Shown here: positions 1,027 through 53,941 of the stretch, piece by piece
Layout of the letters: each line of letters starts with the position of its first letter
How positions within the stretch are numbered: position 1 is the first letter of the stretch
Assembly (NCBI RefSeq): GCF_000027125.1
Contig: NC_017626.1
Origin: Escherichia coli 042
GTDB lineage: Bacteria > Pseudomonadota > Gammaproteobacteria > Enterobacterales > Enterobacteriaceae
DNA length: 64,000 bases
Strand: one strand, 5' to 3'
Program-made: the position numbers and the translations under genes
Notes under the pieces: model-generated
Databases searched by the model: none
What the model was told of the DNA's origin: nothing
What the model saw: only the letters and a program-made list of their open reading frames with translations

Positions 1027-1800
1027 ATGGCTCGTAAATGGTTGAACTTGTTTGCCGGGGCGGCACTCTCTTTCGCTGTTGCTGGCAATGCACTGGCAGA
1101 TGAAGGGAAAATCACGGTGTTCGCCGCCGCATCACTGACTAACGCAATGCAGGACATTGCTACGCAGTATAAAAAAGAGAAAGGCGTGGATGTGGTTTCT
1201 TCTTTCGCTTCGTCATCTACTTTGGCCCGTCAGATTGAAGCGGGTGCGCCTGCGGATCTGTTTATTTCTGCCGATCAGAAATGGATGGATTATGCGGTTG
1301 ATAAAAAAGCGATCGATACAGCTACACGTCAGACACTGCTCGGCAATAGCCTGGTCGTTGTAGCACCGAAAGCCAGCGAGCAGAAAGATTTCACCATCGA
1401 CAGCAAAACCAATTGGACTTCACTGCTGAATGGCGGTCGCCTGGCGGTTGGCGATCCGGAACATGTTCCCGCTGGCATTTATGCAAAAGAAGCACTGCAA
1501 AAACTGGGCGCATGGGATACGCTCTCCCCGAAACTGGCTCCGGCGGAAGATGTTCGTGGCGCGCTGGCGTTGGTCGAACGCAATGAAGCGCCGTTGGGCA
1601 TTGTTTACGGTTCTGACGCAGTTGCCAGCAAAGGGGTAAAAGTGGTTGCCACCTTCCCGGAAGATTCACATAAAAAAGTGGAATATCCGGTTGCTGTTGT
1701 GGAAGGGCATAACAATGCGACAGTGAAAGCATTTTATGATTATTTGAAAGGGCCGCAGGCTGCGGAAATCTTTAAACGTTACGGATTTACAACCAAGTAA
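1027..1800 (+). CDS. modA: Molybdate ABC transporter periplasmic binding protein
   Basis: 257-aa ORF with signal peptide; position and sequence as recalled for modA. Confidence 0.95.
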   Translation: MARKWLNLFAGAALSFAVAGNALADEGKITVFAAASLTNAMQDIATQYKKEKGVDVVSSFASSSTLARQIEAGAPADLFISADQKWMDYAVDKKAIDTATRQTLLGNSLVVVAPKASEQKDFTIDSKTNWTSLLNGGRLAVGDPEHVPAGIYAKEALQKLGAWDTLSPKLAPAEDVRGALALVERNEAPLGIVYGSDAVASKGVKVVATFPEDSHKKVEYPVAVVEGHNNATVKAFYDYLKGPQAAEIFKRYGFTTK

Positions 1801-2489
1801 TGATACTGACCGATCCAGAATGGCAGGCAGTTTTATTAAGCCTGAAAGTTTCTTCCCTGGCTGTGCTGTTTAGCCTGCCGTTTGGGATCTTTTTTGCCTG
1901 GTTACTGGTGCGTTGCACGTTTCCGGGCAAAGCTCTGCTCGACAGCGTACTGCATCTACCGCTGGTGTTACCGCCCGTGGTCGTCGGTTACTTATTATTA
2001 GTTTCGATGGGACGGCGCGGATTTATCGGTGAACGTCTGTATGACTGGTTTGGTCTTTCTTTCGCGTTTAGCTGGCGCGGTGCGGTTCTCGCTGCCGCTG
2101 TCATGTCTTTTCCGCTGATGGTGCGGGCGATTCGTCTGGCGCTGGAAGGTGTTGATATCAAACTGGAGCAGGCCGCAAGAACACTGGGGGCCGGGCGCTG
2201 GCGAGTTTTCTTTACTATCACGTTACCGCTGACCTTACCGGGCATTATTGTTGGTACGGTACTGGCTTTTGCTCGTTCTCTCGGTGAGTTTGGTGCAACC
2301 ATCACCTTTGTGTCGAACATTCCTGGCGAAACGCGAACTATTCCCTCTGCCATGTATACCCTGATCCAGACCCCCGGCGGGGAAAGTGGCGCGGCGAGAC
2401 TGTGCATTATTTCTATTGCGCTGGCGATGATCTCCCTGTTGATTTCAGAATGGCTGGCCAGAATCAGCCGTGAACGGGCGGGGCGCTAA
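1800..2489 (+). CDS. modB: Molybdate ABC transporter permease
   Basis: 229-aa hydrophobic ORF overlapping modA stop; ABC permease signature. Confidence 0.95.
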
Positions 2490-2491
2490 TC

Positions 2492-3550
2492 ATGCTGGAA
2501 CTGAATTTTTCCCAGACGTTGGGCAACCATTGCCTGACCATTAATGAAACGCTGCCCGCCAATGGCATCACTGCTATCTTTGGCGTCTCCGGTGCCGGAA
2601 AAACTTCGCTGATTAACGCCATCAGTGGACTGACGCGCCCGCAAAAAGGGCGGATTGTCCTCAATGGGCGGGTACTAAATGATGCCGAAAAAGGTATCTG
2701 CCTGACGCCGGAAAAGCGTCGCGTTGGCTATGTTTTTCAGGATGCGCGGCTGTTCCCGCATTACAAAGTGCGTGGCAATCTGCGCTACGGCATGTCGAAA
2801 AGTATGGTCGATCAGTTCGATAAGCTGGTGGCGCTTTTAGGCATTGAACCGTTGCTTGACCGTTTACCAGGCAGCCTGTCCGGAGGCGAAAAACAGCGCG
2901 TGGCGATTGGTCGGGCTTTGCTGACAGCACCGGAATTGCTGTTGCTGGATGAACCGCTGGCGTCACTGGATATTCCGCGTAAACGCGAACTGTTGCCTTA
3001 TCTGCAACGGCTGACACGGGAAATCAACATTCCGATGTTGTATGTCAGCCATTCGCTGGATGAGATCCTCCATCTGGCAGACAGAGTGATGGTACTGGAA
3101 AACGGTCAGGTGAAAGCCTTTGGCGCGCTGGAGGAAGTGTGGGGCAGTAGCGTGATGAATCCGTGGCTGCCGAAAGAGCAACAAAGTAGCATTCTGAAAG
3201 TGACGGTGCTTGAGCATCATCCGCATTACGCGATGACCGCGCTGGCGCTGGGCGATCAGCATTTGTGGGTCAATAAGCTGGACGAACCGCTGCAAGCTGC
3301 GCTACGTATCCGCATTCAGGCTTCCGATGTTTCTCTGGTTTTACAACCGCCGCAGCAAACCAGCATTCGTAACGTATTGCGGGCAAAAGTTGTTAATAGT
3401 TATGACGACAACGGCCAGGTGGAAGTGGAGCTGGAAGTCGGCGGTAAAACGCTGTGGGCGCGTATCAGCCCGTGGGCCAGGGATGAACTGGCGATCAAAC
3501 CAGGCCTGTGGCTGTACGCGCAAATTAAAAGTGTGTCGATAACCGCCTGA
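2492..3550 (+). CDS. modC: Molybdate ABC transporter ATPase
   Basis: 352-aa ORF with Walker [10 protein letters not shown] and ABC signature LSGGEKQR. Confidence 0.95.
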
Positions 3551-4369
3551 TTAAATCAGGTGGCTATAAATGAACCGGGCAATGCTGTCGGTGGTGTTAT
3601 CACCAATCACAATGTTGGCGCGCGCTTTTACCGCGTCATCGGCGTTGCCCATCGCCACGCCTGTACCAGCGGCTTCCAGCATACTGATATCATTAAAGTT
3701 ATCGCCGAATGCCACGACGTTTTCCATCGACCAACCTTGTGCCTCAACCCATTTCGTCAAACGTTTACCTTTGCTGTTGCCGCCGCGTGCAATATCAACC
3801 TGATCGTGCCAGGACCATTCACACTCCAGTCCCAGTTCATGTTCGACATGCTTACCAAAATGCTGCAATTGCGGCAGGTCATCGTGCGTCAGGGCGAACT
3901 TCCATACGGCGTTAACTTGTTGCGCCGTTTCAGCCAGAGAAGCGACTTGTGTGAAAGTCGGACGCTGTTCCGGCGGCAGGGTTTGCGCCCAGTTAGACGT
4001 GCGAATGACATGCCCGGTCGGGTGCTCATAGACCATTGCATCATCGACATACATCAGACCGTGAATGTGGTGTTCATTCAGCATCTCAATGAGTTGCAGG
4101 GCTTTATTAACGGGCATTGGGTCCGCTTCCAGCACGGTTTTTGCATGATAATCATACAAATAGGTGCCATTACAGCAAATAGCAGGTGTATCCAGCGCCA
4201 GCGCCTGATAAAAAGGATGAATAGCGACGTGATGGCGACCTGTGACGATGATTAATTGATAGCCTGCTTCGCGAGCGCGGGCCAGGGCTTCTATCGATGA
4301 TGGAAGCAAGGTCTTTTTCGGGGTCAATAAGGTGCCGTCTAAGTCGAGAGCAATCACGCGTGTGGTCAT
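3551..4369 (-). CDS. ybhA: HAD-family (Cof-like) sugar/pyridoxal phosphate phosphatase YbhA
   Basis: Track ORF trimmed to internal Met (MTTRVIALDLDGTLL, HAD motif I); 272 aa. Confidence 0.9.
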   Translation of the reverse strand: MTTRVIALDLDGTLLTPKKTLLPSSIEALARAREAGYQLIIVTGRHHVAIHPFYQALALDTPAICCNGTYLYDYHAKTVLEADPMPVNKALQLIEMLNEHHIHGLMYVDDAMVYEHPTGHVIRTSNWAQTLPPEQRPTFTQVASLAETAQQVNAVWKFALTHDDLPQLQHFGKHVEHELGLECEWSWHDQVDIARGGNSKGKRLTKWVEAQGWSMENVVAFGDNFNDISMLEAAGTGVAMGNADDAVKARANIVIGDNTTDSIARFIYSHLI

Positions 4370-4487: not shown

Positions 4488-5519
<1,032 letters not shown>

Positions 5520-5531
5520 CCGCTGATTTAC

Positions 5532-5555
5532 CCGGCGCAGTCTCTTCTGCGCCGG
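5532..5555. terminator. Hairpin between convergent pgl and ybhD, possible bidirectional terminator
   Basis: CCGGCGCAG-tctctt-CTGCGCCGG perfect 9-bp stem; flanks only weakly U-rich. Confidence 0.35.
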
Positions 5556-5559
5556 TGTA

Positions 5560-6513
5560 TTAACCTATCTCCTGTAACGCATGTCTCTGGCGTTCGACGA
5601 TATTGGTCCACAAATTGTCTTTATCGTCAGTCCACAAATTAATCAGCAAGGCAAAAAAGCGTTCAGCTGCCGGAGAAAGCACGGCATCTTTGCGGCGAAT
5701 AATCCCCAATGTCCGACGTATAACCGGTTCCACCAGCGGGATACCAATAATCGAAGAGTAGGGCGCATGAGGCATTGCCAGGCCTGGAAGCGCCGAAATC
5801 CCTAGTCCTGCCTCCACCAGTCCTAATGACGTCGAAAGATGACGCACTTCGTAAAACCAGTCCAGCTTCCAGGGCTTGTCGGCTAGCTGTTGTTCTATCA
5901 ACAGTCGGTTGCCGCTGGAGGAGCGTACGCCAATCATTTTGTAACCCACTAACTCCTGCCATTCTACAAGCTGCTTTTTGGCCAATGGATGGTCACGCCG
6001 ACAGGCCAGCACGAACGGCTCGTTGACCAGGGGGGTAAAATCAATGGATGAATTTGTGACGTTGTTCATGTTTATGCCAAAGTCTGATTCGTTACACAGC
6101 ACCGATTCCATGCAATTATTCGTGCCTTGTTCCAGAATCCGCACTTTAATATTGGGATACAGCTCATTAAATTTACCAATTGCCAGTGGTAAAAAATAAA
6201 ATACTGCGGTCGGAATACACGCTAACGTCACCATACCACGATGATAAGCATTCATATCACGAATATTAAAAAGCGTTTCATCGAATTTCTTTATTAATTC
6301 CCGCGCCTCCGGGAGCAACCTTTTTCCTGCTTTTGTTAACGTAACCTTGCGAGTTGTACGCTCAAATAGTTGAATATGTAAATCCTCCTCCATCTTTTTT
6401 ATTCTTCGCGTTAATGCAGGTTGCGTAATATTGAGTAATTTAGCGGCATTGTTAAATGAACTGGACTCTGCCAGTATGACAAATGCCTTCATACTTGATA
6501 ATTCATGCTTCAT
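5560..6513 (-). CDS. ybhD: LysR-family transcriptional regulator YbhD
   Basis: Track ORF trimmed to Met at MKHELSSMKAFVILAESSSFNNAAKLLNITQPALTRRIKKME (LysR HTH); divergent from ybhH. Confidence 0.85.
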   Translation of the reverse strand: MKHELSSMKAFVILAESSSFNNAAKLLNITQPALTRRIKKMEEDLHIQLFERTTRKVTLTKAGKRLLPEARELIKKFDETLFNIRDMNAYHRGMVTLACIPTAVFYFLPLAIGKFNELYPNIKVRILEQGTNNCMESVLCNESDFGINMNNVTNSSIDFTPLVNEPFVLACRRDHPLAKKQLVEWQELVGYKMIGVRSSSGNRLLIEQQLADKPWKLDWFYEVRHLSTSLGLVEAGLGISALPGLAMPHAPYSSIIGIPLVEPVIRRTLGIIRRKDAVLSPAAERFFALLINLWTDDKDNLWTNIVERQRHALQEIG

Positions 6514-13100: not shown

Positions 13101-13115
13101 GCTTTTTTATACTAA
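13101..13115. other. attL core (B-O-P') of lambda-type integration; P' arm follows to ~13188
   Basis: GCTTTTTTATACTAA followed by GTTGGCATTATAAAAAAGCATTGCTTATCAATTTGTTGCAACGAACAGGTCACTATCAGTCAAAATAAAATCATTATTTGATTTC, the recalled lambda P' arm. Confidence 0.95.
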
Positions 13116-13188: not shown

Positions 13189-14259
13189 TTATTTGATTTC
13201 AATTTTGTCCCACTCCCTGCCTCTGTCATCACGATACTGTGATGCCATGGTGTCCGACTTATGCCCGAGAAGATGTTGAGCAAACTTATCGCTTATCTGC
13301 TTCTCATAGAGTCTTGCAGACAAACTGCGCAACTCGTGAAATGTAGGCGGATCCCCTTCGAAGGAAAGACCTGATGCTTTTCGTGCGCGCATAAAATACC
13401 TTGATACTGTGCCGGATGAAAGCGGTTCACGACGAGTAGATGCAATTATGGTTTCTCCGCCAAGAATCTCTTTGCATTTATCAAGTGTTTCCTTCATTGA
13501 TATCCCGAGAGCATCAACATGCAATGTTGTAGGGATGGCAATTTTTACACCTGTTTTGCTTTGCTCGACATAAAGATATCCATCTACGATATCAGACCAC
13601 TTCATTTCGCATAAATCACCAACTCGCTGCCCGGTAACAACAGCCAGTTCCATTGCAAGTCTGAGCCAACATGGTGATGATTCTGCTGCTTGATAAATTT
13701 TCAGGTATTCGTCAGCCGTAAGTCTTGATCTCCTTACCTCTGATTTTGCTGCGCGAGTGGCAGCGACCGGGTTTGTTGTTATATGGCCTTCAGCTATTGC
13801 CTCTCGGAATGCATCGCTTAGTGTTGATCTGATTAACTTGGCTGACGCCGCCTTGCCCTCGTCTATGTATCCATTGAGCATTGCCGCAATTTCTTTTGTG
13901 GTGATGTTTTCAAGTGGAGCATCAGGCAGACCCCTCCTTATTGCTTTAATTTTGCTCATGTAATTTATGAGTGTCTTCTGCTTGATTCCTCTGTTGGCGA
14001 GGATTTTTTCGTAGCGATCAAGCCATGAATGTAACGTAACAGAATTATCACTGTTGATTCTCGCTGTCAGAGGCTTGTGTTTGTGTCCTGAAAATAACTC
14101 AATGTTGGCCTGTATAGCTTCAGTGATTGCTATCCTCCTGTCTCGGCCTAATCCAAACTCTTTACCCGTCCTTGGGTCCCTGTAGCAGTAATATCCATTG
14201 TTTCTTATATAAAGGTTAGGGGGTAAATCCCGGCGCTCATGACTTCGCCTTCTTCCCAT
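13189..14259 (-). CDS. int: Lambda integrase (tyrosine recombinase)
   Basis: 356 aa, MGRRRSHERRDLPPNLYIRNNGYYCYRDPRTGKEF..., essentially identical to recalled lambda Int. Confidence 0.97.
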   Translation of the reverse strand: MGRRRSHERRDLPPNLYIRNNGYYCYRDPRTGKEFGLGRDRRIAITEAIQANIELFSGHKHKPLTARINSDNSVTLHSWLDRYEKILANRGIKQKTLINYMSKIKAIRRGLPDAPLENITTKEIAAMLNGYIDEGKAASAKLIRSTLSDAFREAIAEGHITTNPVAATRAAKSEVRRSRLTADEYLKIYQAAESSPCWLRLAMELAVVTGQRVGDLCEMKWSDIVDGYLYVEQSKTGVKIAIPTTLHVDALGISMKETLDKCKEILGGETIIASTRREPLSSGTVSRYFMRARKASGLSFEGDPPTFHELRSLSARLYEKQISDKFAQHLLGHKSDTMASQYRDDRGREWDKIEIK

Positions 14260-14455
14260 TTCTGATCCTCTTCAAAAGGCTACCTGTTACTGGTCGATTT
14301 AAGTCAACCTTTACCGCTGATTCGTGGAACAGATACTCTCTTCCATCCTTAACCGGAGGAGGGAATATCCTGCATTCGCGCACCCATCGACGAACTGTTT
14401 CAAGGCTTCTTGGGCGCCGCTGGCGTGCGTTCCACTCCTGAAGTGTCAAGTACAT
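14237..14455 (-). CDS. xis: Lambda excisionase
   Basis: 72 aa, MYLTLQEWNARQRRPRSLETVRRWVRECRIFPPPVKDGREYLFHESAVKVDLNRP, matches recalled lambda Xis. Confidence 0.95.
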   Translation of the reverse strand: MYLTLQEWNARQRRPRSLETVRRWVRECRIFPPPVKDGREYLFHESAVKVDLNRPVTGSLLKRIRNGKKAKS

Positions 14456-14560: not shown

Positions 14561-14905
14561 TTAGTCCTTGCGTAGCTCACTGATTCTTCTGTAAGTCTCT
14601 GGTGCTTTGTTTCCGTGTATCTTCATTTCAGACTTCAACAGAGCAACGAGGGAATCCCATTCGTTGAGGATGCCTTTGAATGCCGGAACGCGCTTTGCAA
14701 CCTTGTCGAATGAATCTCTGATTTCTGGGATCTGCTCAACAAGTGCAACGCATCGTCGGAAATCGGCTGCGTCATGTGGAGCACCGAAGTGATGACCATA
14801 GATATTCTTTTTCAGTCCACATGCGATTGAGGCAAGAGTTGCGCTACTGATGCCGACATCGCCAGTTGATTGCCATTTCAAAACCTTCATAGCCAAATCT
14901 GACAT
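14561..14905 (-). CDS. Hypothetical protein (~114 aa) in the integrase-proximal accessory slot
   Basis: Track ORF trimmed to MSDLAMKVLKWQ...; preceded by RBS GGAGAC. Confidence 0.5.
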   Translation of the reverse strand: MSDLAMKVLKWQSTGDVGISSATLASIACGLKKNIYGHHFGAPHDAADFRRCVALVEQIPEIRDSFDKVAKRVPAFKGILNEWDSLVALLKSEMKIHGNKAPETYRRISELRKD

Positions 14906-14916
14906 TTCTTGTCTCC

Positions 14917-14940
14917 AATAAAAAACCGCCATCAGGCGGC
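14917..14940 (-). terminator. Rho-independent terminator immediately upstream of the 14905 start
   Basis: Minus-strand hairpin GCCGCCTGATGGCGG followed by TTTTTATT. Confidence 0.5.
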
Positions 14941-16181: not shown

Positions 16182-16808
16182 TCACTTCCCCTTCACACCA
16201 ATGTTGGCGGCGGCGCGCTCGGCTTCACTTTGTTCCCAAAACCACTTGTGAAGCGCCATAAGCTTTTCGTCAATCGGTGCATATTTGCGATTAAAGTAGG
16301 CCTGAGCATCTTTCTCAGATTCGTCCGGTAATTCGCCTGGGCCAAACAGTGTGTTATAAATCCATGCCAGTCCGCTTTTAGCGTCGCCAGTCGATTGCCA
16401 TTCGATAATGGCAGCCTGCATGACCAGAATGTTTTTCCCGATTAACAGGTCCAGTTCTTTGTACCGGTTGCGGATGTATGCATTCTCGCTTTGTAATTTT
16501 GCGTTGCGCTTCTCTGCGGCTTCCAGATCAACTCTCAGCTTCCCTACCGTTAGCGCAATATCCTCGTTCTCCTGGTCGCGGCGTTTGATGTATTGCTGGT
16601 TTCTTTCCCGTTCATCCAGTAGTGCCAGCACGGTTTCTGGTCCGGTCAGAAATTTGAAGGCGTTGAGCGCATCAATATCCACACCGTAATCCTTAAGTTC
16701 CTGTTCACTTAACAAATCATCATCAACTGGCAACATTAACAGGCGTTCCATTGCCGGAATTGCACGTTCTGCCGCCAGTCGCAGAGCCTGATAGTTAATC
16801 TCGCTCAC
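16182..16808 (-). CDS. Ead/Ea22-like early protein
   Basis: 208 aa, coiled-coil rich, position after xis; resembles Ea22-family proteins of lambdoid phages (from memory). Confidence 0.45.
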
Positions 16809-16988: not shown

Positions 16989-17303
16989 TTAATTTATTCG
17001 TATGCCTGCTCTTTCTTCATCGAGTTTTTTTAGCTTGTATCGCATAGCTCTTACTGAATAAATTGAGCGGCAGGTTGCAATTGCTATTTCTTCTGCGGAG
17101 AACTTACCGAAAAGTGATACTTCGGCTCTTGTCCATCGTCTTCCACGAAGTCGGCTAACAATGTCAGCGCCAATCCTTGTTGCTTTCGCCATTACTGCTT
17201 TTTCAGTCCTTTCCAGTTTTTCAGCGATAACTTCAACTGGCATTGTCGCCGCCACTTCGCGCAAGAAATCGACTTCCCATTTCTCCCATGGAGTCTTTTT
17301 CAT
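16989..17303 (-). CDS. Hypothetical phage protein
   Basis: 104-aa ORF in early-left operon. Confidence 0.4.
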
Positions 17304-17314
17304 AGGCGATACCG

Positions 17315-17803
17315 TTATTTGATAAGAAGTGAAGGTTTCCCAACTTTGAGTTGAGCGCCGGGGATATTTATTCCTGCTTTTAGTTGGTGTTTGATTGCTA
17401 GTTTGTCGGCTTTAATTGTCGTTTCAAACTCAACGTATTCTTGAGGAAGGGCGCTTGAGTCGATGATTTCTACAGTTTCTGACGGTTTGCGGATTGTTAC
17501 CTGGTGAATACCTGCTCGAATCTTTTTCTTGCCAACCATTTCAAGCGATGACGCTATATATGATTTGATGCTGTCAATCTTATTTTGAATTACTGCGGCT
17601 CGCTCATTTAGTGACTTTGCCTCTTCCTTGAGGCGTTCAGCATAACCAGATTCATTTTTAATAATGGCGAGAAGTTGCTCTATTTTATCGGTAAATTCTC
17701 CTTCCATGCCTTCTATTGTGTCAGCAATCATCTCTGGCTCTAAATCTGAATCCATCAATTTTGCGTATTCATTGGCTATTTCATATAGTTTGCTCACTGG
17801 CAA
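17315..17803 (-). CDS. Gp157-like protein (RecT-associated family)
   Basis: 162 aa immediately downstream of recT; acidic coiled-coil protein of the type often adjacent to RecT/Erf. Confidence 0.4.
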   Translation of the reverse strand: MPVSKLYEIANEYAKLMDSDLEPEMIADTIEGMEGEFTDKIEQLLAIIKNESGYAERLKEEAKSLNERAAVIQNKIDSIKSYIASSLEMVGKKKIRAGIHQVTIRKPSETVEIIDSSALPQEYVEFETTIKADKLAIKHQLKAGINIPGAQLKVGKPSLLIK

Positions 17804-18692
17804 CCTCCAGTTTCGCTTTGCATTCTATGTAAATGGCTTGTACGTTCTGCTGCAATTTCATTCCAGATGTCAGGCGATATGCTTCTGCAAAATATCGCTT
17901 CAAATCATCCATGTTTTCTGCCTGAGCCATTTCATCGCAAAGAAGTTGTACTTTATCCATTATTTCCTGCTGGCGTTTCCGTTCATCTTCGCGGATATCT
18001 TCCTCTGATTTGTGCGGCATAACTGGTTCAGTCCACACACCTTCTTCTTCGTTTAGTACGTGAATAGCACTATCAAGACGTGATGCCTTAGGCCAATACT
18101 TGCTTGCACGCTTTACGACCGTCTTTCGCGCCATCTCATTCCAGTGATTTACCCATGGTCCTTTATCGCTGAATGCTGCCTTGCTTGTTTTCCTTACAGC
18201 CTCAATTTCAGCCAGACTCATCTCTTCCGTTAGATAATCACCTGCTGGCGTCTTAACTGTGCAGTAAACGCCAACGATATCACCACGATCACCGAAGGCG
18301 TTGTATTTATGGGTTGGTGCTTTATCAAGCCCGTTTGACTCATAGGTATCGTTAGCATGAACAAGTTTTGCCTGACCCCATGAGATAACACCAGACTCCA
18401 TTGCAATATGGAGCAATCCCATATAACTGATATCAAGGCAAACCATGCCGTCGCGCGGAACTAGATAAGCAAGTTTGCTGGCCGGGTTTAAGGTGATGCC
18501 GATCGCCGCAACATTGATGATGGCGTTCTGTGCGCTGGTTGGATTTGCCAGTGCCGTTTTAGCCAGGTAATCATTTTTCTGGAAATACTGAATTGCAAAC
18601 TGGCTTTCCTTAGCCCATGTCACCGTCTGTTCAGTCAATGCTCCGCAGAATAACTGCTCCTGCTGTTTAACGAATTCAACGATATTGCTCAT
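17781..18692 (-). CDS. recT: RecT-family single-strand annealing recombinase
   Basis: 303 aa with the recalled RecT pattern GPWVNHWNEMARKTVVKRASKYWP. Confidence 0.8.
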   Translation of the reverse strand: MSNIVEFVKQQEQLFCGALTEQTVTWAKESQFAIQYFQKNDYLAKTALANPTSAQNAIINVAAIGITLNPASKLAYLVPRDGMVCLDISYMGLLHIAMESGVISWGQAKLVHANDTYESNGLDKAPTHKYNAFGDRGDIVGVYCTVKTPAGDYLTEEMSLAEIEAVRKTSKAAFSDKGPWVNHWNEMARKTVVKRASKYWPKASRLDSAIHVLNEEEGVWTEPVMPHKSEEDIREDERKRQQEIMDKVQLLCDEMAQAENMDDLKRYFAEAYRLTSGMKLQQNVQAIYIECKAKLEVASEQTI

Positions 18693-19000
18693 GCAGCTTC
18701 TCCATAAATATGTCTGCGTTTGAATATTGCGAAGGCATATTCAGCCTTAACTCTTTCGGTTATTGCATCCCAGAACCATTCAGCGGCTTTTTCCTGATAG
18801 TTACAGTCATCATCTTCCAGCCAGTCGATAGCGTCCTTAGTGTGTTCATCTGGTTTATATGAGCGAAGCATTTCGCTTATTGGGTCGCAACGTTTGCAGA
18901 GGCGATCAACTTCACTGTTGATTCGTTCGTAATCTTCATCAGTAAAACTTGCGATTATTTGCGATATTTCACGCTTATCATTCAGAGTCAGAATCATCAT
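18689..19000 (-). CDS. Hypothetical early protein
   Basis: 103-aa ORF overlapping recT start codon. Confidence 0.4.
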   Translation of the reverse strand: MMILTLNDKREISQIIASFTDEDYERINSEVDRLCKRCDPISEMLRSYKPDEHTKDAIDWLEDDDCNYQEKAAEWFWDAITERVKAEYAFAIFKRRHIYGEAA

Positions 19001-19547
19001 CTTTCTCCTGTTCTTTGTGCTGATTGAGCATTTCTTTCATCTGACGAATGAATTCTTCGTCTGACCAGTTATCTGTAAAACTCATTTCCTGCGATACCAC
19101 GGAAGGTTGATCGCTGATTTCATCGCTTTATTTGCTTCAAGCCACATTTTTGAATCACCAATAAATCTGGCTATTACTGCTTTGTTCTGTGCAGCACGAA
19201 GCATCTGGTGATTGATGGCTATTTCATTGCGCATAACGCCTCCAGTTGTTTCTTTGCTGCTCTGATTAATTGTTTAACTCGGCGTGATAATTCAGATTCG
19301 TGCGGGTAGAAAGCGGACATGACGCCGCTACCCGCGAGCTGAAAGTGCATCATGGGTAACTCCTTATATTTGATTGCATAACGAAAACGCCTCGAATGAA
19401 GCGTTATTGGTATGCATATAAAAAGGCCCTCACACTGGAGGGCAAAGAAGATTTCCAATAATCAGAACAAGTCGGCTCCTGTTTAGTTACGAGCGACATT
19501 GCTCCGTGTATTCACTCGTTGGAATGAATACACAGTGCTTATTCGTA

Positions 19548-20018
19548 CTAATAAAATACCCAATTTTCTGTTTCTTGGTTGTGTCCAAAGTTATATTCAA
19601 TATCTGGTGTTGATGTATCAATATTCTTCATCCCATCAACAAGAGTTGATACAACAGCCAAATCTTGTTCTATTCTCATTAAATGGTATTTCTTCCGGCG
19701 CAATAAACTTTCAATAGCAAGTTTCTTCGTTGGGAATGCAAAAGATCTTTCTGCATTTTTTGCTACTTTCTTAATTGCATATCTATTTCTCCTTTGTTTC
19801 CATTCCTGTAACCACTGATTTGGTGCTGGTTTAAAATTAACAATCCAATGCGCAGGAACCAACCATGCATAATGCTCTGTCTGATGAAAAGCTATATATT
19901 GAAGTGCGAATATTTTTATCCCATCTTCTTCAACTGTCGCCTGGAATCTCCAGAAAACAGGCATTCCATCATGTTCAGTTTCTGATTCAGGAAAAGGTAC
20001 GCTCCATGATTTTGTCAT
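19548..20018 (-). CDS. Hypothetical protein, low-GC accessory gene upstream of N
   Basis: 156-aa ORF in AT-rich DNA; no recognised family. Confidence 0.5.
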   Translation of the reverse strand: MTKSWSVPFPESETEHDGMPVFWRFQATVEEDGIKIFALQYIAFHQTEHYAWLVPAHWIVNFKPAPNQWLQEWKQRRNRYAIKKVAKNAERSFAFPTKKLAIESLLRRKKYHLMRIEQDLAVVSTLVDGMKNIDTSTPDIEYNFGHNQETENWVFY

Positions 20019-20026
20019 ATCTCACC

Positions 20027-20353
20027 TCAAATAAGTGGTTTGCTGCCTAATTTCATTTTCTGTCGACCAACACAAGTCACACCAATTTCACTGCGTGGCT
20101 TGCTGTACCATGTGCGCTGATTCTTGCGCTCAATACGTTGCAGGTTGCTTTCAATCTGTTCGTGGTATTCAGCCAGCACCGTAAGGTCTATCGGATTCAG
20201 TGCGCTTTCTACTCGTGATTTCGGTTTGCGATTCAGCGAGAGAATAGGGCGGTTAACTGGCTTTGCGCTTACCCCAACCAACAGGGGATTTGCTGCTTTC
20301 CATTGAGCCTGTTTCTCTGCGCGACGTTCGCGGCGGCGTGTTTGTGCATCCAT
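20027..20353 (-). CDS. N: Antitermination protein N
   Basis: Track ORF trimmed to MDAQTRRRERRAEKQAQWKAANPLLVGVSAKPVNRPILSL..., matches recalled lambda N; 108 aa. Confidence 0.92.
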   Translation of the reverse strand: MDAQTRRRERRAEKQAQWKAANPLLVGVSAKPVNRPILSLNRKPKSRVESALNPIDLTVLAEYHEQIESNLQRIERKNQRTWYSKPRSEIGVTCVGRQKMKLGSKPLI

Positions 20354-20463
20354 CTGGATTCTCCTGTCAGTTAGCTTTGAGTAACGCGCCGTGATGCTTA
20401 TCTCCACGGTTGCTGTCTTGCAGCTGCATTTCGCGCTACTCAAAGCTTTCTGCTTTGAATGCT

Positions 20464-50834: not shown

Positions 50835-52310
50835 CTAAAGTGAATCTATTCCATTTTTCCAAATAAGAACTTTTTTGTCTTGTATTTTATGAGTGCTATC
50901 AGGCTGCCCAAACTGTTTTATGGCCTTTTCCTCTTGCTCTACATCATCAGCAATTAAAAAATTAGCTCCTTTTTGGTACCATTCTTTTTTTGATAACCAA
51001 TTATATGGTGTGAATCTATCACCATACGACTCAAATGGAGCTACGTTGATATCACTAAATCCAGCAACAGATGATGCAAACCAAAATGATGCATAACCTC
51101 TTTGTAGTTTATTTTTTATTAAGAAATCTCTTAATTCTATTGTAATATCATTTTTATTAACAATGTTTTTTGTTGTTGCCATCGTTGGCAACGATAACGC
51201 AATAACGATTAATGATATTAGTAAATTTGTCTTCACTGGTAAGGAGAAAGAATTTCTAGCAATCACAATTGACATGAAAATAAATGTTGGGACTATGTAT
51301 CTAATTGAGAAAAGATTTGTTGGCCTGTCACTTGAAACATAGGCAATCAACATGACTAATGATGATACAATAAGAACCTGGTCAATAAAATCAATTTCTT
51401 TAAATTTAAGAATGTTTTTATAAGATAAAAATAAGAATACAAAAATGAAAAACACCTTTATCATGGTGAATAATGAGTTAAAGCTACCTATCTCCATTCC
51501 AAACGCGTACCCACCAAAAAATTTGAATACGCCCATGATAACAAGAGATATGTTGCTTGTTATTTGTTGAAACTCTACTATGTGAGGTTTGGTTATGCCT
51601 GGCAGGTTAAATCCACCAAGCTTAATGAATATAAATGATATGATCTCAGCAATAAATATAGATGATATAGTGAAAACCAACAATAACAAATCATTAGTAT
51701 TCAACGAATCTCTTTTCATTAGAGAAGCATACATTCTATATATGCAAACAAAAACTATAGGTATTATAAAGGCATATTTAGATATATCATCACTAAAAAC
51801 AAGCAACGATAACATAAATACATATGGAAAAAGTAATTTTAAATCATTTTTCTTTCTGTATCTATCTATTATTAGTATGATCGCCAGCATGTAAATGTAC
51901 GCACCAATATGTATACATGCTATAAGCATTATACTTGATGAGAAAACCGTTGGAATTCCAAATACAGAAAGAACAGGCCATAACGATGCCCTACTTTTAG
52001 TATGAGAGATATATAGCGATAGTGTTACTAATATAGACATGAAAACTCCAGGCACAATATAGTACAGATTTTCATTAAATCCTATTATTTTTATCGCTAT
52101 AGCATATGGTATTATTTCTGTGAAATAGAATGATACAGTTGATAAATCCCACCCACTGAGAAAAATATTTCCTTCAGTAATATCCCTTGCCTCTCTGAAT
52201 GAAGACATGACATCTGAGTTTGGAATTATGTTTTTAGCAATCATTGAGTAAATTATTGATAATACAATAAATGTTGCCAGCCAATATAAAAGCTCAAGCT
52301 TCTTGCTCAT
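50835..52310 (-). CDS. Serotype-specific O-antigen glucosyltransferase (GtrC-type)
   Basis: 491-aa polytopic membrane protein, strongly AT-rich, downstream of gtrA-gtrB in same operon. Confidence 0.75.
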
Positions 52311-53224
52311 TTTTTACCCTTAAGTACATACTTTGGACGCTGCTTAACTTCAATGTAAATTCTACCAATATACTCACCGAGCACTCCAATCCCAATTAAC
52401 TGGATGCCGCCAAGAAATAATATTGATACAAGAATTGAAGGGTATCCAGGTACATTATTACCAAAAATTAATTTATCAATTATCATCCATGAACCGTATG
52501 TAAATGATATACATGCAATAAATAACCCAATATAGGTCCACATGCGAAGCGGGAATGTTGAGAAGCTAGTGATCCCTTCCAGCGCCAAGTTCCATAGCTT
52601 CCATCCATTGAACTTTGTGCTTCCTGCAACGCGTTCTGCTCGCGCATATTCTACGACATCGGTTCGACCACCAACCCAGCTCAGCACACCCTTCATAAAC
52701 AGGTTTCGTTCTGGCATGAGCTTAATATTTTCTACTACTTCGCGAGACATGAGCCGGAAGTCGCCAACATTCTCTTCTATCTGAGGGTTGCTGATTTTGT
52801 TATGAAGTTTATAGAACCACTCAGCAGATTTACGCTTCAGCCTGCTGTCAGTGGAGCGGTCAGAGCGTTTAGCCAGAACCATATCTGCACCGGCCTGCCA
52901 TTTCTCTATCAAGTGAGGAATAACTTCGATAGGGTCTTGCAGATCAACGTCAATCGGGATAATTGCCTCCCCGGTAGCATGGTCCAGACCTGCGAACAGG
53001 GCGGGTTCTTTGCCGAAGTTACGTGTGAACGACAGCGAAACCACAAGCGGGTCGGCAACAGCGAGCTCGTTGATAATTGATTCTGTAGCGTCTTTGCTGC
53101 CATCGTTTATGAAGACTATCTCGACTTCATGCTGCTGAAGCCCTTCAAATTCGCGCACAGTTTTATAAAAAATAGGTATCGTGGCCTCTTCGTTAAAGAC
53201 CGGAACGACTAAAGAAATTTTCAT
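52307..53224 (-). CDS. gtrB: Bactoprenol glucosyltransferase GtrB
   Basis: 305 aa; GT2 N-terminal domain ([13 protein letters not shown]...DGSKD) plus C-terminal TM helices. Confidence 0.9.
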
Positions 53225-53583
53225 TTCGCATCCCTAAAGACAATGAACTTTGAATAGACGAAACCGCACACCAGGCTGATGGCGGAGAAGGTGACAAGAG
53301 TTATCATCGGGGGAAGTGCGCATCTATCAGCAGCCCATCCAACAGTAGCACTGAGTGTTCCCATGAACCCGACATATAACATGTAGCGCATCGTTGTAGT
53401 TGATGCTTTGAATGTGAATTTTGCATTCGCGAAGAAGCTAAAACTCACAGCCACAACGAAACCTGCGAAGTTTGCCAGAGCCTGATTGGTATGCGCGGCA
53501 TAGATACATACACCAAAAACCACCCAGTGTATAAGTGTGTTCAGCACACCAATCGAGGTGTACCTTGCAAATATATTTAACAT
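53221..53583 (-). CDS. gtrA: GtrA flippase-like small membrane protein
   Basis: 120 aa, four TM segments, first gene of gtr operon. Confidence 0.88.
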
Positions 53584-53926: not shown

Positions 53927-53941
53927 GCTTTTTTATACTAA
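53927..53941. other. attR core (P-O-B'); lambda P arm lies at ~53770-53926
   Basis: Second copy of GCTTTTTTATACTAA followed by bacterial CTTGAGCG; upstream CAGGTCACTAATACCATCTAAGTAGTTGATTCATAGTGACTGGATATGTTGTGTTTT matches recalled lambda P arm. Confidence 0.95.

Follow-up and report, generated by a model that had tools for sequence, protein, structure and literature searches.

A RecT–Gp157 recombination module without an exonuclease gene in a lambdoid prophage of Escherichia coli 042

The prophage and its early-left operon

The window analyzed here is a stretch of 64,000 nucleotides from Escherichia coli 042 (contig NC_017626.1). It contains a lambdoid prophage of 40.8 kb, integrated at the lambda att site and apparently intact. 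The prophage is delimited by two copies of the att core, the left one adjoined by lambda-like int (13189-14259) and xis (14237-14455) genes:

13101..13115, plus strand: attL core, left prophage boundary, an exact match to the lambda att core GCTTTTTTATACTAA
53927..53941, plus strand: attR core, right prophage boundary, the second copy of the lambda att core

The recombination (Rec) module belongs to the early-left operon, which is transcribed from pL, and lies downstream of an N-like antiterminator gene. It contains, in order, genes for a 103-aa protein, RecT, Gp157, a 104-aa protein and DUF2737, and is flanked by kil and cIII on one side and by DUF2737 and ea genes on the other. The features discussed below are as follows:

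18978..19100, minus strand: acidic ORF of 35-40 aa (PHROG 17766/2123), located between the 103-aa gene and kil; its N-terminal motif, WSDEEFI, is Arf-like
18689..19000, minus strand: 103-aa acidic protein, predicted to be all-helical, PHROG 3486, in the lambda 'gam slot'
17781..18692, minus strand: RecT-family single-strand annealing protein, 303 aa (Pfam, PHROG and NCBIfam profiles)
17805..17942, minus strand: RecT C-terminal domain, residues 251-296 (46 residues), a candidate Gp157-docking module from the co-occurrence of this tail with Gp157
17315..17797, minus strand: Sipho_Gp157-family protein, 160 aa, in the slot held by exo in lambda (Pfam PF05565, PHROG 253)
16989..17303, minus strand: 104-aa basic protein with two HTH repeats, Abc1/Mu gp9-like (PHROG 323; profile and repeat alignment)

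The minus-strand genes abut or overlap: the stop codon of the 103-aa gene lies over the ATG of RecT, the RecT and Gp157 genes overlap by 17 nt, and a gap of 11 nt precedes the 104-aa gene. The Gp157 ORF spans 17315-17803 on the minus strand. Translation probably begins at a GTG (17797) that follows a GGAGG by six bases, giving the 160-aa product annotated by RefSeq. Coding density on this strand is essentially complete, and there is no space for an overlooked gene. The nin region of the same prophage encodes two further proteins relevant to recombination:

25325..25765, plus strand: NinB (Orf), recombination mediator (Pfam PF05772, E 1.1e-54)
27720..28082, plus strand: RusA Holliday-junction resolvase (Pfam PF05866, E 1.1e-16)

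The module is approximately 98% identical to those of the plaque-forming phages mEpX1, HK140, Kapi1, Gally, Louie and Dewey, and was found at a coverage of at least 80% in 263 of 5426 complete E. coli genomes. In comparison with HK140 and mEpX1, there is essentially no difference inside the module: gene order and content are as here, nucleotide identity is about 98%, protein identity is 99% for RecT and 97% for Gp157, and a nuclease and an SSB are absent. Outside the module, the prophage is a different mosaic from HK140/mEpX1, with lambda int/att, an SfII-like myovirus late region and gtr genes.

RecT without an exonuclease gene

By its profile matches, the product of 17781-18692 is a RecT-family annealing protein. 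It matches Pfam PF03837 (E 3.3e-32, 112 bits against a cut-off of 24), PHROG 148 'RecT-like ssDNA annealing protein' (E 6e-92) and NCBIfam TIGR00616 (82.4 bits, above the cut-off of 52.65). Its score falls under the equivalog cut-off for Rac RecT (101.7 vs 296), which marks it as a member of the RecT family and not as a Rac RecT orthologue. Its match to the solved RecT of a Listeria phage (7ub2) is weak, and it is 99.3% identical to RecT of mEpX1 and Kapi1. A first-pass annotation of this DNA had named a RecT protein and an adjoining Gp157-like protein, and both assignments hold (E 5e-38 to PF05565 for the latter).

The same annotation had seen no lambda-Exo or RecE-like ORF nearby, and this observation now extends to the whole window. 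The ORFs of the early-left operon scanned between 14561 and 20443 gave no nuclease family match in Pfam or PHROGs. When the whole window was scanned in six frames (1241 stop-to-stop segments) with nine nuclease queries of the Exo/YqaJ and RecE types, the best match (E 0.03, 10 bits) was at the level of noise, ruling out a hidden nuclease of these types on either strand. The module thus differs from lambda Red and RecET, in which an exonuclease gene lies beside that of the annealing protein. The slot order (small protein, annealing protein, partner) is the same as in lambda Red (gam-bet-exo), TL-2011c, Cronobacter ENT47670 and Aeromonas vB_AsaM-56, and the RecT proteins paired with Exo have cores 52-78% identical to that of this RecT; the difference is that here the exo slot is filled by Gp157 and the RecT tail is of a different type.

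Might a cryptic exonuclease be the partner of RecT, in the form of a flanking small ORF, as the first-pass annotation had proposed, or of Gp157 itself? The sole argument for it is positional, in that Gp157 occupies the position of Exo in related RecT modules. Against it, an alignment of 122 diverse Gp157 sequences has one invariant residue, a lysine, and is without a conserved set of Asp, Glu and His residues for a catalytic metal, and the predicted Gp157 fold combines one long helix with a small beta domain. Of the two flanking ORFs, 18689-19000 encodes an acidic protein predicted to be all-helical and 16989-17303 encodes two HTH repeats, and neither matched a nuclease in a profile search. 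Searches with the module proteins in Pfam, PHROGs, NCBIfam and PDB gave no nuclease match. A cryptic exonuclease is accordingly regarded as extremely improbable.

Equally slight is the likelihood that decay has left the module nonfunctional and without an exonuclease gene that it once had. Prophage decay is frequent, and a related RecT gene is truncated by an IS element in an Stx2a phage. However, all ORFs of the module are intact and tightly coupled, RecT and Gp157 carry no inactivating mutations relative to the phage copies (96-99% identity), and plaque-forming phages have the same arrangement. HK639, Pantoea PA-1, Klebsiella KO-TP1 and phages of Aeromonas, Vibrio and Pseudomonas also keep the arrangement, with protein identities of 50-70%, and a RecT tail confined to Gp157-paired genes argues for selection and not loss.

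The first-pass annotation had treated the arrangement as unusual; it is in fact common, already catalogued and largely ordinary. Among 246 lambdoid Rec modules, 84 are without a nuclease gene, and the P22 functional type, in which an annealing protein is combined with an anti-RecBCD protein and a nuclease is missing, comprises 46 phages (Zheng et al., 2025, Genome Res; PMC12315714). HK140 is described in the same study as a combination of SAP-4 (RecT-type) and 'MuGam' anti-RecBCD, without nuclease or SSB. [quoted passage not shown] The earlier suggestion that the module may rely on the host agrees with the standard reading of P22-type modules (Zheng et al., 2025).

The comparison with P22 itself (arf-erf-abc1-abc2) shows both likeness and difference. 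Common to the two are an annealing protein alongside a separate anti-RecBCD function (presumed here), the lack of a phage exonuclease, the presence of small accessory genes, a location with kil on one side and DUF2737/ea genes on the other, which is also that in HK97, and membership of the 104-aa protein and Abc1 in PHROG 323. In contrast, the annealing protein is Erf in P22 and RecT here, the order of the accessory genes is unlike, and Abc2 of P22 binds RecC and redirects RecBCD, whereas the corresponding protein here is presumed to be the end binder Gp157.

Gp157 and the RecT C-terminal domain

The match of Gp157 to PF05565 (Sipho_Gp157; 131 bits vs a gathering score of 28.6) covers profile positions 1-162 of 162, and the protein falls in PHROG 253, 'Mu Gam-like end protection'. 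Its AF2 model consists of a short helix, a 67-residue helix and then a small beta-rich C-domain. The Mu Gam/Ku end-binding proteins (PF07352; PDB 2p2u) resemble Gp157 in length, in having a long helix followed by a C-terminal beta domain, and in occurring beside annealing proteins in the same slot. When alignments of Gp157 and Mu Gam were compared with hhalign, a collinear match over 124 columns was obtained (probability 57%, P 1e-4), and the C-domain of Gp157 alone gave P 7e-5; the controls gave 0.42 for the reversed alignment and 0.002 for the best of 30 column shuffles. This profile-profile likeness is suggestive, not decisive. On the other hand, the two belong to separate Pfam families and PHROGs (Mu Gam, 491; Gp157, 253), no match of Gp157 to Phage_Mu_Gam (PF07352) was found in Pfam even at E up to 10, and no fold-search match was obtained. 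Gp157 is probably a Mu-Gam-like DNA-end-binding, anti-RecBCD protein. The prophage contains just 3 Chi sites, as expected of phages with an anti-RecBCD function, and this was counted for the anti-RecBCD reading.

The Gp157 family is large (8217 proteins in representative clusters at E up to 0.001), and its members regularly adjoin annealing proteins of four families (RecT, Erf, Sak and Sak4) in Proteobacteria and Firmicutes. One slot beside erf and sak4 was reported to be taken by either Mu gam or sipho_gp157 genes (Steczkiewicz, 2021; PMC8093625). Distant homologues were found beside RecT, Sak or Sak4 without Exo. In Pseudomonas phage PMG1, the Gp157 gene adjoins an exonuclease gene, so that Gp157 is not simply a substitute for Exo. 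The literature searched yielded no experimental study of the family.

Gp157 could instead be a phage-resistance or superinfection-exclusion protein, as the description of its Pfam family would have it, acting apart from recombination. That family takes its name from a resistance-linked gene of a Streptococcus thermophilus phage, and some records label homologues 'resistance protein'. The original resistance phenotype is reportedly ascribed to a non-coding origin element and not to the protein. A PADLOC search gave no match for the module proteins, and the proximity of Gp157 homologues to RecT, Erf, Sak and Sak4 genes across two phyla also speaks against a role outside recombination, which is therefore considered highly improbable.

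The type of RecT tail, i.e., the C-terminal 100 or so residues, was found to track the downstream partner and not the RecT core. Tail identity to this RecT is 37-56% in Gp157-paired genes vs 20-32% in Exo-paired genes. A tblastn search with the tail returned 26 phage records, all of which (26/26) contain a Gp157 homologue, and the two genes are neighbours in every coordinate pair compared. Within the tail, residues 251-296 share 57% identity (E 7e-15) with the C-terminal end of an annealing protein of the ERF family from Pantoea phage PdC23, the gene of which likewise lies upstream of a Gp157 gene. In lambda, the C-terminal domain of Beta binds Exo. The pattern suggests that the 46-residue domain common to this RecT and an Erf-family protein is a docking domain for Gp157. 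The genes concerned are adjacent DNA, and the co-occurrence could reflect co-inheritance instead of physical contact. The novel lead suggested by the analysis is this RecT domain, confined in the 26 phage records to the neighbourhood of Gp157 and present also on an Erf-family protein.

Accessory proteins and the proposed mechanism

The 104-aa protein scores E 2.8e-20 against PHROG 323, compared with 1.3e-23 for P22 Abc1 and 5e-29 for Mu gp9, and its two-repeat structure is seen in the alignment. It is related to Mu gp9 (BLASTP E 5e-5; hhalign P 2e-5) and more distantly to Abc1 (hhalign P 1.8e-3). BLASTP of the flanking ORFs against P22 Abc1, Abc2 and Arf returned no similarity, and the kinship of the 104-aa protein with Abc1 is thus remote. 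The label 'Anti-RecBCD protein 1' carried by the homologue in Gally is acceptable as a statement of remote homology only, not of demonstrated function. A pairing of gp9-like and Gam proteins as a general rule was rejected: among 42 non-identical Mu-like loci, just 10 have a gp9-like gene ahead of gam, and these all belong to close relatives of Mu. The 35-40-aa ORF weakly resembles two phage proteins, with an N-terminus in common with HK97 gp42 and a 7-residue motif in common with P22 Arf, which has the same genomic position.

The 103-aa protein (pI 4.65, five helices predicted) gave no family or fold match in Pfam or Foldseek, and PDB sequence searches with the small proteins returned no significant match. 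The best fold match of its model, to T4 UvsY, was not significant (E 4.2, TM 0.29), and this likeness was discarded. In Pantoea PA-1, Cronobacter ENT47670 and Erwinia Midgardsormr38, a homologue immediately precedes RecT, and in SEN22 one is found upstream of a PD-(D/E)xK nuclease. Dewey has lambda-Gam in the same slot, and HK639 and TL-2011c have GamL.

The position of the 103-aa gene raises a further reading, in which its product is the true inhibitor of RecBCD or of another nuclease, an analogue of Gam, and Gp157 has a different role, e.g., as a RecT-loading mediator. The gene sits exactly where lambda has gam (cIII-kil-gam-bet-exo), in a slot used for Gam or GamL in the phages just named; its stop codon overlaps the RecT start, its homologues precede Exo-paired as well as Gp157-paired RecT genes, and its product is acidic and helical, as is the DNA mimic Gam. 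BLASTP also aligned it with Dewey Gam over 22 residues at an equivalent C-terminal position (50% identity, E 2e-4), but the aligned stretch is brief and enriched in acidic residues. Comparison by hhalign was not significant for lambda Gam (P 0.15) or for GamL (P 0.06, non-collinear) and did not support homology to either; the relatives of lambda Gam retrieved were all at least 96% identical, which made them useless for profile building. Pfam gave no Gam match at E up to 10, and Foldseek gave no significant match for the model. Furthermore, HK639 and Dewey carry a Gam-type gene and Gp157 together, so that the slot argument leaves the anti-RecBCD reading of Gp157 standing. The Gam-analogue reading is considered unlikely, with somewhat more in its favour than the other alternatives above.

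The best explanation, considered fairly probable, is a nuclease-less Rec module of a lambdoid prophage in which Gp157 protects DNA ends and RecT anneals ssDNA from the host or from replication, with help from NinB and RusA. Gp157, probably a dimer formed through its long helix, would bind dsDNA ends in the manner of Mu Gam and shield injected or replicating phage DNA from RecBCD. RecT would coat ssDNA and anneal complementary strands, the ssDNA coming either from replication forks or from the host, through resection by residual RecBCD or by RecQ/RecJ. It may be tethered to Gp157 by its C-terminal 46-residue domain, analogously to the lambda Beta C-terminal domain and Exo. NinB and RusA, from the nin region of the prophage, would aid loading and junction resolution, and the 103-aa and 104-aa proteins would be non-catalytic accessories comparable to the Arf and Abc1 that flank P22 erf. 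The outcome would be recombinants and the concatemers required for packaging. Counting against a combination of end protection with host-derived ssDNA, a Ku-like end binder would impede host resection too.

A bolder version goes beyond passive end protection and is put forward tentatively, at rather less than an even chance. Gp157 would serve annealing proteins as a dedicated partner without nuclease activity, standing in the place of Exo and recruiting RecT to DNA ends, with resection left to a host nuclease. The RecT tail would be a portable dock shuffled between the RecT and Erf families, only beside Gp157 genes, and the 103-aa protein would be either a RecT cofactor or a host-nuclease inhibitor of a novel type.

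As it stands, the module documents a common, catalogued route by which lambdoid phages recombine without an exonuclease of their own, which is helpful for annotation and unsurprising. If the RecT/Erf C-terminal domain docks Gp157, the targeting of DNA ends by modules that lack a nuclease would be accounted for. Docking would further provide a rule for which partner each annealing protein needs, relevant to the porting of recombineering to new hosts, and would predict sensitivity to defence systems, e.g., Gabija, that sense RecBCD-shielded DNA ends.

The RecT-Gp157 module and its prophage

The RecT-Gp157 module lies within the minus-strand early-left operon of a 40.8-kb prophage in the E. coli chromosome. 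Lambda-like int and xis genes occupy the left end of this prophage, and its late region is ~96% identical to SfII and SfI, which are Shigella serotype-converting myoviruses.

Early-left operon, in order of transcription
20027-20443, minus: N-like antiterminator, first in the operon
19548-20018, minus: conserved 156-aa ORF (PHROG 1636)
minus: cIII, between the 156-aa ORF and kil
19082-19234, minus: kil
18978-19100, minus: acidic ORF of 35-40 aa
18689-19000, minus: 103-aa ORF, directly before RecT
17781-18692, minus: RecT
17315-17797, minus: Gp157
16989-17303, minus: 104-aa ORF
minus: DUF2737, Ead/Ea22 (16182-16808) and DUF551, in that order

Other prophage features
13101-13115 and 53927-53941: att core copies GCTTTTTTATACTAA, exact lambda att core matches bounding the prophage
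14561-14932, minus: 123-aa conserved early-left gene (PHROG 1229)
25325-25765: NinB
25702-26607, plus: PAPS-reductase-like 301-aa gene, nin region
26946-27455, plus: NUMOD4 + HNH_3 homing-type endonuclease, nin region
27720-28082: RusA
50835-52310, minus: 491-aa gene, no Pfam match
52307-53224, minus: gtrB (GT2)
53221-53583, minus: gtrA (PF04138)

RecT matches PF03837 (E 3.3e-32), PHROG 148 and TIGR00616 (above the curated cut-off), and the Gp157 gene matches PF05565 (Sipho_Gp157) along the entire profile (E 5e-38). The latter likely starts at the GTG at 17797, with GGAGG six bases earlier, giving 160 aa as in RefSeq. No nuclease family was matched among the early-left ORFs scanned. When all six-frame segments of the window were compared with nine Exo/YqaJ and RecE-type nucleases drawn from lambda and related RecT modules, the best match was at the level of noise (E 0.03, 10 bits). 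Moreover, the module genes abut or overlap, leaving no room for an overlooked ORF. These data demonstrate the gene content of the module and the absence of a nuclease, and bear out the first-pass annotation, which had described a RecT-family protein next to a Gp157-like protein with no lambda-Exo or RecE-like nuclease nearby.

The 2.6-kb region is ~98% identical to counterparts in phages mEpX1, HK140, Kapi1, Gally, Louie and Dewey, and was found at ≥80% coverage in 263 of 5426 complete E. coli genomes; the arrangement is kept in viable phages. Nuclease-less modules have been catalogued (84 of 246; Zheng et al., 2025, PMC12315714), as has a P22 functional type of 46 members that combines an anti-RecBCD and an annealing protein, and the module itself is therefore already known. 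The same survey states that phages carrying anti-RecBCD functions have few Chi sites. The window contains 13 copies of Chi (GCTGGTGG), where about 2 would be expected; ten lie in the flanking chromosome (23 kb) and three in the prophage (34329, 34685 and 40627, all on the plus strand), the last count being in agreement with this rule.

Several further features of the prophage were observed. The 156-aa gene also has a counterpart after N in Dewey and HK97, and neither it nor the 123-aa gene matched Pfam, NCBIfam or PADLOC. The homing-type endonuclease and PAPS-reductase-like genes lie between NinB/NinE and RusA. Residues 96-197 of the Ead/Ea22-like protein, its C-terminal half, match the PADLOC model 'DpdH' (E 6e-37), an unexpected tie of a lambdoid ea-region protein to a listed component of Dpd DNA-modification defence; a prophage neighbour may perhaps have served as the source of the model. 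Next to attR lies an O-antigen modification cluster of low GC (about 0.39-0.41; 50835-53583, minus), whose 491-aa gene presumably encodes the serotype-specific glucosyltransferase. This cluster agrees with the SfII/SfI-like late region, indicating that the prophage is probably serotype-converting.

Small proteins flanking the module

The proposal that one of the flanking small ORFs might be a hidden partner nuclease found no support: neither ORF matched any nuclease family. The 103-aa protein is acidic (pI 4.65), belongs to the narrow enterobacterial family PHROG 3486, and showed no significant match in Pfam, NCBIfam, PDB sequences or Foldseek. Five helices were predicted by AlphaFold2 (mean pLDDT 77); a small protein modelled as all-helical is not a plausible exonuclease. 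Its gene sits in lambda's gam slot: upstream of RecT, this slot is filled by lambda-Gam in Dewey and by GamL in HK639 and TL-2011c, and homologues of the 103-aa gene directly precede RecT in PA-1, ENT47670 and Midgardsormr38. In Salmonella phage SEN22 (its coordinates 1588-3600), a 97%-identical 103-aa copy stands ahead of a PD-(D/E)xK (DUF3799) nuclease, which together with a 189-aa protein takes the place of RecT-Gp157, followed by an annotated 104-aa homologue. The 103-aa and 104-aa genes thus frame an exchangeable central cassette.

The neighbouring 35-40-aa ORF has an N-terminus in common with HK97 gp42 and shares a (W/F)SDEEFI motif with the Erf cofactor Arf of P22, which is encoded at the corresponding genomic site; the ORF could represent a remnant or a cofactor of Arf type. 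The database protein P0145 (69 aa) looks like the N-terminus of the ORF fused to the 103-aa protein's C-terminal half.

The 104-aa protein is basic and contains two tandem HTH-type repeats, with three in its relatives. Together with P22 Abc1 and Mu gp9 it falls into PHROG 323, and hhalign gave P 2e-5 against gp9 and 1.8e-3 against Abc1. Judged from its sequence, it is a DNA-binding-type accessory protein and not a nuclease. In phage Mu (its coordinates 5482-6325), gp9 lies directly upstream of gam, an adjacency that only close Mu relatives show (10 among 42 non-identical Mu-like loci).

Gp157 and its possible relation to Mu Gam

RecT relatives are followed by Gp157 in HK639, Pantoea PA-1, Klebsiella KO-TP1, Aeromonas phiA005, Vibrio 1.247 and Pseudomonas 15b, and by an Exo/PD-(D/E)xK nuclease, frequently accompanied by SSB, in TL-2011c, Vibrio 1.071.A, Aeromonas vB_AsaM-56, Cronobacter ENT47670, Pseudoalteromonas SL25, Erwinia Midgardsormr38 and Yersinia vB_YenM_22. 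As relatives carry either one or the other after RecT, Gp157 holds lambda's exo slot. Distant Gp157 homologues adjoin annealing proteins of several families, namely RecT (in the order RecT-Gp157-SSB), Sak, Sak4 accompanied by DUF669, and Erf, and Exo is absent from these loci. In Pseudomonas phage PMG1 (its coordinates 1758-2998), a 33%-identical Gp157 homologue directly follows an exonuclease gene, no annealing-protein gene separating the two; the presence of Gp157 thus does not exclude that of an exonuclease.

PHROGs labels the Gp157 family 'Mu Gam-like end protection', although Mu Gam itself belongs to a different PHROG and Pfam family and HMMER gave no cross-match between the two. Alignments of 122 diverse Gp157 sequences, from an exhaustive search (8217 representatives, E ≤ 0.001), and of 42 Mu Gam sequences were compared with hhalign. 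The match was collinear over 124 columns (probability 57%, P 1e-4; C-domain of Gp157 alone, P 7e-5), against controls of 0.42 (reversed) and 0.002 (best among 30 column shuffles). In Firmicutes phages, Mu gam and sipho_gp157 are found at one and the same position next to erf-ssb and sak4 (Steczkiewicz et al., 2021, PMC8093625). A Mu-Gam-like nature of Gp157 is moderately supported, but unproven. Only one residue, a lysine, is invariant across the 122 sequences, and no acidic or histidine set is conserved among them, which counts against a catalytic role.

The RecT tail as a candidate docking domain

Across the Gp157-paired and Exo-paired sets, RecT is 51-82% identical in its core, which extends to the YWP motif. 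The C-terminal tail tracks the partner: its identity is 37-56% in Gp157-paired genes and 20-32% in Exo-paired ones, even where the core reaches 78%. With nothing but the tail as query, tblastn retrieved 26 phage records, all of which also encode a Gp157 homologue (at least 52% identity). The tail and Gp157 genes were neighbours in all coordinate pairs compared, and as neighbouring DNA the two may simply be co-inherited. Pantoea phage PdC23 has an annealing protein of the ERF family (PF04404, E 6e-44) whose final 46 residues share 57% identity with RecT residues 251-296 (E 7e-15); a Gp157 gene lies downstream, with an inserted HNH gene between. The co-occurrence of one small C-terminal domain, on two annealing-protein families, always with Gp157, suggests a novel lead, namely that the RecT C-terminal domain is a candidate Gp157-docking domain. 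An analogue is lambda Beta, whose C-terminal domain binds Exo. The PMG1 Gp157-exonuclease pair is a caution against the docking reading. Partner-domain shuffling was named as likely, without analysis, by Zheng et al. (2025, PMC12315714). In the Stx2a-converting phage JNE110649 (its coordinates about 2730-3950), RecT is shortened at its C-terminus by an apparent IS insertion (two transposase-like ORFs on the opposite strand), with loss of the tail and anything after it.

In the proposed mechanism, Gp157 would bind DNA ends and shield them from RecBCD, and RecT, touching Gp157 through its C-terminal domain, would anneal single strands that arise through resection by the host or become accessible at replication forks, with NinB and RusA possibly assisting. 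The module encodes no exonuclease, and its dependence on a host nuclease, as initially put forward, is plausible. Within this known module, the 103-aa gam-slot protein and the testable docking-domain hypothesis are the remaining points of interest.
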